Origin: Octopus vulgaris
Taxonomy: Eukaryota
Reading direction: 5' to 3'
Length of the DNA stretch: 64,000 nucleotides
Assembly: GCA_951406725.2 (NCBI GenBank)
Contig: OX597821.1
Span: 70,618,001-70,682,000 of the forward strand
Of this stretch, positions 29,320-60,609 are shown one piece after another. The notes under the pieces were generated by a model that searched no databases, had not been told where the DNA came from, and was given only the letters and a program-made list of their open reading frames with translations. The translations under genes were made by a program, and so were the position numbers. How positions within the stretch are numbered: the first letter of the stretch is position 1; every line of letters starts with the position of its first letter.

Positions 29320-29763
29320 TTTCGACCGTGTGTGTCGCCGTACTTCCGCGCAGCCGCGTCGCCGTACGCTCTGCGTCGCGCCGCCAAGCGCCGGAACACT
29401 TCTTCACGCGAAGCGGCGGACCGGTACGGGGCTGTAACGTTGGCGTCGGACTCGGCATCCCGGGCGCCTTTCCCTCTCCGCGCGCGGGTCGAGGCGTGCG
29501 GCGGCTTCACGCCCTTCGATTTTGGTGACTTTGGATAACTGTCAGTACGATAGCACGGGCTAGTATCGAACAGCCTTCGCACGACGGGTCCCCCGCGAGT
29601 CCGCCCTATCAACTGTCGACAGCTCGGCAAATGCAGACCGTGGTGGCAACGGGTAACGGGGAATCAGGTTTCGATTCTAGAGAAGGAGCATGCGAAACGG
29701 CTACCACATCCAAGGAAGGCAGCAAGCGCGCAAATTACCCACTCCCTGCACGGAGAAGTAGTG
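29320..29763 (+). pseudogene. Dispersed 18S rRNA gene fragment (5' domain, V2 region to about V3), pseudogene
   Basis: Conserved SSU blocks TTTGGTGACT..GGATAAC, GCCCTATCAACTGTCGA, ACGGGTAACGGGGAATCAGG and GAAACGGCTACCACATCCAAGGAAGGCAGCA.GCGCGCAAATTACCCACT. There are substitutions in invariant positions (CCGG to CTAG), an abrupt end at 29763, and no ITS, 5.8S or 28S nearby. Confidence 0.92.
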
Positions 29764-33990: not shown

Positions 33991-34259
33991 AATTAATCAA
34001 TCAAACTGAAAAAGAGTATATATGGATATTAGTTTCAAATTCCAGCAAGTCGTTTTTTGCTTTGTTTTAAGACAGTAAATTATAATGGGAACCTGAAGAC
34101 ATTTGTCTGAAAAGAGATAGAATTTCTTCAAATTTCAAAAACGATGAACAAAAGATGGAGAGGAAGAATCGAGACAAAAAAAAAACCCTATTAGTTTGGA
34201 AATAATAGATTTCTAAATCTCTCAGAGAGATTTATAGAGTAGTAACACGATAAAGTGGC

Positions 34260-34391
34260 GGTATGTTGTCAACTTAATGTGAAGGACACAGGAAATGTGT
34301 CAAGGTCGACAGGAAGCGGTGCTTCCTAGGGCTAAATAGCAGTAGTATTCTTCCCTTTCATGGGACTGTCACATTAAGTTGACAACATACC
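34260..34391 (+). repeat. Short element bounded by a perfect 23-bp inverted repeat, homologous to the arms of the 59.6-60.0 kb palindrome
   Basis: GGTATGTTGTCAACTTAATGTGA / TCACATTAAGTTGACAACATACC. Internal AAGGACACAGG..ATGTGTCAA and GCTTCCTAGGGCTA are shared with 59901-59961. Confidence 0.75.
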
Positions 34392-58380: not shown

Positions 58381-59602
58381 TGTATGTATGTATGTATGTA
58401 TGTATGTATGTATGTATGTATGTATGTATGTGTGTATGTATGTGTGTATGTATATGCGACGTGCTTATATCTAGCTCGTGATTATTATTGTGGATAAATT
58501 TGTTTGATACTAAGAGGAAAATTAAGAATCAGCTATAAAATAAACGCAAACAAAATGTATAAAACAAACAAACAAGCGAGGCATCACGGTTATTTAATGC
58601 ATCAGCTGAGGAAACTGTGTGTTATTAGGAAGTTATTTAAGCTCACAACACTAATGGTCCATCTGAGATCAATCAGGAGATGTGACTTGTCGAAAGATGT
58701 GTAGCGTTGCATCTTCGAAATGGAATCGTATATATGTAAGGACTTGTGTGGTTTTCATTCTGTTTCTGTTTGTGTGTATACATGCATGCATGGATGTACG
58801 GATATGCATGTACGTATATACGTATGCATGTGTGTATACGTATATCTATAAGTATATGTGTGTATGATATCTATATGTGTATGTGTGCATATGCATGTAT
58901 ATTTGTATTTATGCATGCATGTATATATGCGTTTACATATGTGTGTGTGTGCGTGCATATGGCGAAGTGGCAGAGTAGTTAGAGCGTTCGATAAAATATT
59001 TTGCATTGTTTGTTGCGAATCTTGGCGTCCTACACTCTAATCCTACCGAAACCGGCCTTGCCTGTTATTTGTTGCGGCTCGGTAAGCTCTTGTGGGAGAT
59101 GTAATGGGACACAGCATGCACGACAAGTATGAGTCTTTCTCAAAACGTTTCATAAATGTATGTACAGTTGCACGGACAACATTGACTAACTGAGGCCCCA
59201 GAGTTCAGTATGTATGTATCTCTGCTGGTTTTCTTTCAAGTGTTCCTGTAAGGAAACTTGCTTGCTAACAAAGATACAAAGCCCCTTCATTTAATTGTAA
59301 ATAACATTTTAAACTTAAGAAAAGTCTTCCGTATTTATATATGTGTTATTGTATTCATATGTACGTGTATGTTTTTTTTGTATTTATGCATGCATGTATA
59401 TATGCGTTTACATATGTGTGTGTGTGCTAACAGTATAGCTGTGAATCCATAAGCTGAGTAGTTAGAGCGTTCGATAAAATATTTTGCATTTTTCCATTAT
59501 GCACCGTTTGGGGCATTTATACCCAAAAACCTTTAATAGCTTTAAAACTACTCGTCCGCTTTTCGTTCGTATTAACATTTAAGGGTAAACTTAATTCATA
59601 GT

Positions 59603-60020
59603 ATGGTTGTATACTGTCAATCTAACACGAACGTGACAGTAGGGGGGTACACCACCGCTATATAGCCCTAGGAAGCATCGAACGCCTCCTGATGGCTTTG
59701 ACACATTTTTCCCTGTGTCCTTATATACATTTACGAAGGGGAGACAAACACCCCCGGCCGCCGAAGCTGCATCTAGGGATACGTGTTTCAGGATCATTGT
59801 CCTTCATCGGCCTAGATGAAGGACAATGATCCTGAAACACGTGTCCCTAAATGCAGCTTCGGCGGCCGGGGGTGTTTGTCTCCCCTTCGTAAATGTATAT
59901 AAGGACACAGGGAAAAATGTGTCAAAGCCATCAGGAGGCGTTCGATGCTTCCTAGGGCTATACAGCGGTGGTGTACCTCCCTACTGTCACGTTCGTGTTA
60001 GATTGACAGTATACAACCAT
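59603..60020. mobile_element. 418-bp palindrome (206-bp arms, 6-nt spacer) centred on a hammerhead motif; probable inverted PLE pseudo-LTR pair
   Basis: 59603-59808 is the reverse complement of 59815-60020, with about 4 substitutions and no indels; spacer GGCCTA. Confidence 0.92.
59770..59818 (-). ncRNA. Minimal type I hammerhead ribozyme (family H3, C at core position 4)
   Basis: Minus strand: CAUCUAGG-CCGAUGA-AGGA(CAAUGA)UCCU-GAAA-CACGUA-UC-CCUAGAUG, with a perfect 8-bp stem I and 4-bp stem II. The other arm keeps the fully palindromic ACACGUGU stem III. Confidence 0.8.
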
Positions 60021-60609
60021 TCTATCGCCCCACCACCGTACATGTCTCTACGTATTAACATTTAAGGGTCTTATTAATTCATAGTATTTTCCCCTTATGC
60101 GCCAGTTTGGCTGGGTAACATTTTAAGCAAGCAAGCAAGATTCAAACTGACTTTTAATGTCAGATGGACGTATTTCGGCATTGTCAACGTTTCATCACGC
60201 GATTAGGGTTACGTCAGGACGAACCTGCTACAGTTGACTTAGCCAAGACTCGTGACCAACGGACGTTATATAGTCTTCCCTTTTTCTTTTTAATTTAGAT
60301 TAAACTGTGACCGGCCACCGACTTGGTAGCAAGGTTGTGAAGGTAAGTATTCTGTATGTATGTATGTATGTATATATGAATGCATGTATGTATGTATGTA
60401 TGTATATGTGTATGTATGTACATGTGTATGTGTGCGTTTGTGTATGCATGTATGTACGTGAGTGTGTGCGTGTGTGTATGCATGTATGTAGGTTTGTTGT
60501 CACGAAATAGCTTGTTTTCGGATGTTCATGAATATTTCAGCTGGGATAGAGTCAGAATCTAGGACCTTGTCGTTCGAGAGAAGCTTACTTGCTTTTTGGA
60601 CCTTTACTT

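Follow-up and report, generated by a model that had tools for sequence, protein, structure and literature searches.

A hammerhead ribozyme motif lies at the axis of an almost perfect 418-bp palindrome in the window, the whole stretch of Octopus vulgaris DNA analysed here (64,000 nt of contig OX597821.1). The initial annotation proposed that a cDNA had snapped back on itself at the ribozyme, giving a non-coding fold-back retroelement that mimics a MITE. The locus raises the question of how its two arms came to be joined, and whether the palindrome is an element in its own right or one product of a larger family. Papers are cited by accession, for the available portions of their text.

Geometry of the palindrome and its hammerhead

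The arms of the palindrome (59603–59808 and 59815–60020) are 206 bp each, with no indels and four mismatches, all transitions (59645, 59660, 59773/59850, and 59780), around the 6-nt spacer GGCCTA. Direct sequence comparison reproduced exactly the earlier description of 206-bp arms with about four transitions, no indels, and a 6-nt spacer; a repeat finder stretched the inverted repeat to 211 nt at 98%. The insertion is longer than the palindrome. Its right arm continues to 60052, and it is flanked by a 12-bp direct repeat, the left target-site duplication (TSD; TTAATTCATAGT, plus strand, 59591–59602) being identical to the right one (plus strand, 60074–60085). Both copies lie within another high-depth repeat that hosts the insertion (59470–59602 and 60074–60183). 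BLAST mapping onto a real monomer of the parent repeat placed the left arm on the minus strand at 59603–59816, as unit 327–365 followed by 1–175, with its outer end at family end A (~175–181) and its inner end at a truncation hotspot (326–331). The right arm mapped to the plus strand at 59815–60052, as unit 335–365 followed by 1–207, and runs 32 nt past the palindrome.

The right end is irregular at this locus. A direct repeat (D18) and the sequence itself revealed a 16-nt copy of upstream target DNA (59570–59585) on the plus strand at 60053–60068, in place of unit 208–229; it is followed at 60069–60073 (plus strand) by TCTTA, which matches the commonest outer end and is tentatively, on 5 nt only, a remnant of family end B (unit 230–234). 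The 16-nt copy is likely a templated insert, and we read the right end as a B end with such an insert; a degraded TSD of 33–37 bp, instead of 12 bp plus an insert, is possible. The equal 483-bp spacing of D18 and another direct repeat, D17, was rejected as meaningful, being a coincidence with no colinear homology.

The inversion junction (59809–59816, no strand) consists of the spacer and a 2-nt microhomology (GA). The initial annotation had placed a 4-nt GATG/CATC microhomology here, but the minimum is 2 nt (GA/TC), the modal value of the family (16 of 98 junctions), and GATG/CATC is merely the innermost pair of the arms. The axis does fall at the hammerhead, inside the 5' strand of stem I, but at neither its core nor its cut site. 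A junction 26-mer, searched at ≤1 mismatch, matched the genome only at the locus itself; hence, the palindrome arose once, from a repeat that is itself common.

The damaged type I hammerhead occupies 59772–59816 on the minus strand, as judged from its pairs against a native copy and from the conservation of family columns. Reading from 59816 to 59772, it has stem I, the core CCGAUGA (59810–59804), stem II AGGA/UCCU (59803–59790), and GAAA, with the predicted cut site between 59778 and 59777. The native family form is UCUAGG-CCGAUGA-AGGA(CAAUGA)UCCU-GAAA-C(ACGU)G-UC/CCUAGA, with a 6-bp helix I, a 4-bp helix II, and a helix III of two pairs with a palindromic loop; a canonical metazoan hammerhead with such a helix III works as a dimer (PMC4209133). 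Core columns were conserved at 94–99% in about 190 arms, except for the variable position 7. Two subfamilies differ at unit 337 and 348, in core position 7 (U or C) and loop 2. Unit position 363 is G in 185 of 193 arms and A at this locus (59780), a change that turns GUC into AUC and leaves stem III with C.A where its only C-G pair would be. The hammerhead, earlier called complete, therefore retains stem I, CCGAUGA, stem II, GAAA, and the cut site, but not stem III. Its 8-bp stem I does form, but only six of the pairs are native and two were made by the junction, from the opposite arm: native copies read UACUCUAGG where the locus has CAUCUAGG. The plus-strand copy is incomplete, as previously stated: its stem I is without a 5' strand, and its core is short of its first two bases, C3 and C4.

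AUC is cleavable in other hammerheads (PMC1636495), but the partner base of this position is unchanged at the locus. The family core carries C at position 4, a base that lowers activity in vitro (PMC3088659). Judged from its sequence, the hammerhead at this locus is predicted to have no catalytic activity. The Rfam models, which the initial annotation had named as a check, recognised no hammerhead either at the gathering score or at E ≤ 10; hence, its identity rests on the motif and on family conservation. Sub-threshold Rfam matches to microRNA hairpins were produced by the palindrome. The predicted fold of the whole palindrome was one hairpin of −418.5 kcal/mol that buries the ribozyme, as had been anticipated for a read-through transcript.

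The parent repeat family

The palindrome represents a single insertion from a family of non-coding hammerhead repeats, 365 nt long and of the non-LTR retrozyme type. BLAST of one arm against the assembly (2.8 Gb in 227 contigs, microsatellite-rich) gave at least 54 matches, with the best 40 of 2,687 candidates scored; the best 45 of these matches were 94–100% identical across nearly the whole arm. Neighbouring copies were spaced 365 nt apart, which is the unit length. The unit is numbered in circular coordinates, position 1 being the first base 3' of the GUC cut, with a real copy (L002:1167–1531) as reference. A 23-mer from its 3' part matched 1,685 times at ≤1 mismatch, against 0 for the control. 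Each unit has a canonical type I hammerhead and encodes no protein, the unit falls within a tandem range of about 170–400 nt, and the TSD (12 bp here) exceeds 4 bp. In four sequencing runs that are possibly RNA, contigs spanned 26–28 of the 29 bins of a unit dimer, a coverage from which strand, ends, and level are not readable. No family of this kind was seen in the available part of the octopus repeat annotation of 2026 (PMC13282606), and searches of the open-access literature turned up no paper about the family or about retrozyme truncation linked to structure. Elsewhere in the window, 34199–34346 holds short, diverged fragments (about 75%) of the same or a related repeat, and 29533–29762 a degenerate small-subunit rRNA fragment (Rfam, 60.4 bits), probably a piece of a pseudogene.

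The architecture of the family was determined from 200 distinct mapped insertions (111 first, then 89 new). Most sampled copies had fewer than 2.3 units and were 5'-truncated, and half were inverted; tandem and single-arm copies were common, with tandem arms of 580–831 nt in 8 loci. Inverted insertions, joined 5' end to 5' end, made up 105 of the 200, and in 89 of these 105 an outer end at 171–181 was paired with one at 228–244 (near unit 180 and 235), so that a tail of ~56 nt lies between ends A and B. The commonest outer end was 235 (93 of 315 arms). The rule was also seen in a subset picked by the 3' 23-mer alone, irrespective of the ribozyme: 48 of 78 were inverted, 41 of the 48 with the same pairing. 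The reverse order occurred at two loci, at one of them between two separate insertions. By raw count, simple inverted insertions contacted (TA)n in 72 of 98 cases; of the remaining 26, 19 had TSDs of 6–14 bp.

These data bear on whether the palindrome copies itself, as would a family of MITE-like or fold-back elements with the ribozyme at their centre. The locus resembles MITEs in being short and non-coding with long terminal inverted repeats, and in 4 of the 98 junctions both ends fall within the ribozyme. However, those four ribozyme-centred junctions are all different, the junction differs in every copy examined, and the 26-mer of this one occurs once; TSDs vary instead of being fixed, copies are not uniformly full-length, and tandem and single-arm copies abound. 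A self-copying palindrome is thus scarcely credible. Of the proposed non-coding fold-back retroelement mimicking a MITE, the non-coding nature, the hammerhead, and the mimicry stand, but not the palindromic copying, the junction being unique.

Each of the four differences between the arms is a rare allele, present in 2 to 6 copies among about 190–300 arms, and the two arms share the common subfamily alleles; therefore, they were probably identical at insertion. The rare alleles also speak against an assembly artefact, in which a chimeric fold-back read would have created the palindrome, as do the extra family sequence of the right arm, the 12-bp TSD around the insert, and the occurrence of the same layout in 105 of 200 loci. 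Long palindromes are error-prone, and no DNA contig bridging the junction was seen among those listed, but a gap there proves nothing. We consider an artefact very improbable.

Proposed priming, stalling, and joining of the two arms

Insertions of the family have an inverted 5'-truncated neighbour, a one-sided tail between fixed starts, and an AT-rich or microsatellite target. The initial annotation had pointed to Penelope-like elements (PLEs), and the inverted layout, the one-sided tail, and the (TA)n targets indeed match PLE insertions, for which an inverted 5'-truncated copy, a one-sided tail, and a (TA)n bias are described (PMC8557442), the inverted layout being reported for endonuclease-bearing PLEs (PMC3846280). 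With the only purified PLE protein, both strands are cut and extended, synthesis starts at two RNA sites that bound the tail, and the RNA is used uncut, ribozyme cleavage being unnecessary (PMC11167929). By analogy, the family ends at ~180 and ~235 would fit two internal PLE start sites. One proposal is that non-LTR retrozymes derive from PLEs and are non-autonomous (bioRxiv 10.64898/2026.07.22.740005).

With a probability of about 0.75, we infer that the locus is a single, slightly decayed retrozyme insertion made by a PLE reverse transcriptase (RT)/endonuclease priming from both ends of a staggered cut. A PLE protein would bind the multimeric or circular repeat RNA in trans, and its endonuclease would cut AT-rich DNA with a stagger of ~12 nt. 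One DNA end would prime at unit ~175–180 and the other at ~235, and both cDNAs would extend toward the 5' side of the RNA through the uncut ribozyme, to stop, in this copy, at 327 and 335. The two cDNA ends would then be joined via a 2-nt microhomology, leaving two arms inverted 5' to 5' and a tail on one side only. There was no enrichment of stops at the cut site (363–5; 3 of about 49 passes), indicating that the template was uncut; cleaved linear monomers were rejected as the main template, there being no excess of ends at that site.

A simple snap-back of one cDNA, as first proposed, does not account for the locus: in unit coordinates, the left arm spans 175 to 327, and the right arm, from 335 to 207, has 32 nt and a tail remnant with no counterpart on the left. 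Because each arm holds sequence absent from the other, a single cDNA folded back on itself cannot yield both. In 18 of 38 unbiased pairs, as in this copy, the arm with the shorter 3' end reached further 5', and hence two primings are needed. The inversion is only partly tied to the ribozyme. Its 5' edge is over-represented among the break points, 19 of 98 junctions having an end at 326–335, but the other 79 lie elsewhere in the unit. A snap-back product at stem I, with the partner at 1–10, was rejected, as it was found in 0 of the 19 junctions at the ribozyme 5' edge.

Junctions that were symmetric to within 20 nt were in excess (14 of 38 against 5.6 expected; 0 of 10,000 permutations), and rare variants were shared within the arms of one insertion at 2.3 per kb against 0.4 per kb between insertions. 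Both arms of an insertion were probably copied from one RNA. These two results also favour a salvageable form of the snap-back idea, in which two primings still occur and an intramolecular fold-back creates the junction: the 3' end of the left cDNA (327) would pair back and make a sense strand, and this sense-strand DNA would then meet a short cDNA from the other end. Several near-symmetric junctions coincide with natural hairpins, overlapping by 6, 12, and 20 nt, the junction here reads CCTAGATG, which equals unit 1–8 and would permit a two-step slip, and self-priming has been proposed for PLE palindromes (PMC3846280). On the other hand, none of the 19 junctions at the ribozyme 5' edge continues at 1–10, the cDNA end folds weakly (−2.6 kcal/mol), and two cDNAs copied from one RNA would join into an identical product, so that sequence alone cannot separate fold-back from two-cDNA annealing. 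We regard the fold-back as possible but rather unlikely.

Where the cDNAs end was examined in two stages, both hotspots having first been picked after inspection of the data. In the discovery set, 7 of 41 passes stopped at 326–331 against 3.4%; in the pre-specified replication, 13 of 94 did so against 5.6% (p = 0.002), one locus (L236) having been left out as a duplicate of L235 (14/95 before removal). Stops at 31–60 occurred at 1.45 against 0.43 per 100 nt in the discovery set and at 1.45 against 0.33 in 46 independent partner arms (p = 0.0008); this zone includes a TA-rich stretch that possibly favours microhomology joins. The stop at 327 in this copy is likely not due to chance.

Both hotspots lie at the ends of a predicted helix of ~50 bp (unit 1–56 with 273–332; −67.9 kcal/mol, z = −7.45) that extends helix I. 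The opposite strand folds too (z = −8.19), and thus folding energy alone leaves the strand unfixed. Common variants gave G.U on the ribozyme strand at nine pairs and A.C at one (p = 0.011). Two-sided compensatory changes were almost absent, and there were two common variants that break pairs (15/315, G.G in 51/130; 22/307, C.A in 51/121). On this model, the positions of the stops suggest that RNA structure stalls reverse transcription at both ends of the helix. An enzyme moving 3' to 5' would meet the base of the helix at 56 in the ribozyme-closing register, and the same ~50-bp helix, when closing the monomer, would put its base at 332. The truncation map may accordingly be read as a footprint of RNA structure, with two enzymes, each primed by one end of the cut, on one uncut multimeric or circular RNA stalling at the bases of extended helix I as its register flips between ribozyme-closing and circle-closing; we hold this tentatively, at somewhat less than even odds. 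The near-symmetric junctions exceed what shared hotspots would give (14 of 38 against 5.6), which argues against the two enzymes stalling independently.

The hotspot at 326–331 might instead be a run-off end, that is, the 5' end of the RNA. Ends at 326–335 also occur away from inverted junctions (18 of 39), and a branch-point/acceptor-like sequence (CTGAC...TCTAG/G), judged by eye, lies just upstream. Newt satellite-2 transcripts may start upstream of the cut site, for which a literature search gave no confirmation. In D. virilis, the 5' end of helix I coincides with the end of an intron (PMC4209133). Yet about 80% of passes run past 331 (150 of 190 pass 326–335), eleven ends include 326–327, upstream of the AG, and the second hotspot at 31–60 is left unexplained, so a run-off end appears unlikely. 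If the footprint reading is true, it is the scaffold of the ribozyme and not its chemistry that sets where inversions form, and hundreds of natural copies report how PLE inverted repeats arise, the route to which is described as still open (PMC8557442).

Relation to Penelope-like elements and other systems

The locus is an ordinary copy, predicted to be dead, a PLE-type inverted retrozyme insertion whose layout is already known. The new findings are two truncation hotspots, each replicated, that mark the ends of the predicted extended helix, and a passenger ORF carried by the same 180/235 ends. The family offers a compact template, a 365-nt non-coding unit on which start sites are fixed and stops cluster in two replicated zones at a predicted helix, and it is the anatomy of its insertions, not sequence homology, that backs the proposal that PLE enzymes move animal retrozymes. 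Palindromes of this kind risk being mis-annotated as MITEs or microRNA hairpins.

Metazoan non-LTR retrozymes (PMC7229834; bioRxiv 10.64898/2026.07.22.740005) share with the family the canonical type I hammerhead, the 6-bp helix I, the 4-bp helix II, the helix III of 1–2 bp with a palindromic loop, TSDs longer than 4 bp, a non-coding tandem unit (365 nt here, 350–390 bp in mussel), and a highly self-paired RNA. They form long arrays, whereas the copies here are mostly shorter than 2.3 units, 5'-truncated, and half inverted, and the C at core position 4 is a further difference. Inverted insertions were not found in the available text of these two papers, the word 'inverted' being absent from PMC7229834. 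Among the Xenopus elements, only one of nine cleaved (bioRxiv 10.64898/2026.07.22.740005).

The family shares several traits with endonuclease-bearing PLE insertions (PMC3846280; PMC8557442; PMC11167929): copies are 5'-truncated, have an inverted 5'-truncated neighbour, and carry a tail on one side only, bounded by two start sites; their targets are AT-rich or (TA)n, and their TSDs vary around 10 bp; the ribozyme lies upstream of the tail and is uncut in the template; and passenger genes are carried between the repeats. It differs in lacking an RT/GIY-YIG ORF, in its tail of ~56 nt against the published 30–40 nt, and in its canonical rather than minimal hammerhead. In L1 twin priming, a 5' inversion is made by two primers at one target site. 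The family has the 5' inversion, the two primers, and the one target in common with it, but differs in its putative fixed internal priming sites 56 nt apart, its overlapping copy, and its lack of poly(A).

We searched for an autonomous partner. The unit had no significant match in 30 of 148 GIY-YIG loci (best E = 0.025), which yielded no homologous partner, nor in 17 other hammerhead loci (20 retrieved, three of them of this family), and no Penelope-like protein (RT plus GIY-YIG ORF) or passenger-ORF match was found anywhere in the 64-kb window. A PLE family is present in the genome, with many intact 781-aa frames that combine an RT with a C-terminal GIY-YIG (L274, L279, and related loci). Its 3' region is internally repeated and bears no resemblance to the 365-nt unit, and the hammerhead pattern was absent within 1.5 kb of its endonuclease match. 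PLE-like fragments were seen near seven of the fetched family loci (five independent sites). A genome search with a hammerhead-core pattern (L299–L325) gave 390 matches against two in the control; many of these belong to a second, more diverged family with the core CTGATGA and unrelated flanks.

The passenger ORF is restricted to a composite subfamily. It belongs to a gene family of about 410–470 aa (L238–L267) with a CCHC knuckle, LINE-ORF1-like by eye, for which no Pfam match was obtained and no reverse transcriptase was seen in the units read. There were 103 matches to these genes, many with open frames, and the genes stand in tandem units of ~1.8 kb that end in AATAAA or poly(A); examples are G000:C1:178667978-178669210 (L089/L032) and C4:70043452-70051584. 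The ORF adjoins the hammerhead repeat in 18 of 30 loci, the other 12 having no match to the repeat, and typically lies inside it at 298–314 with an apparent 17-bp duplication. Copies that carry the ORF have a further hammerhead variant with an extra G in loop 3, and these composite copies share the 180/235 ends and the inversions.
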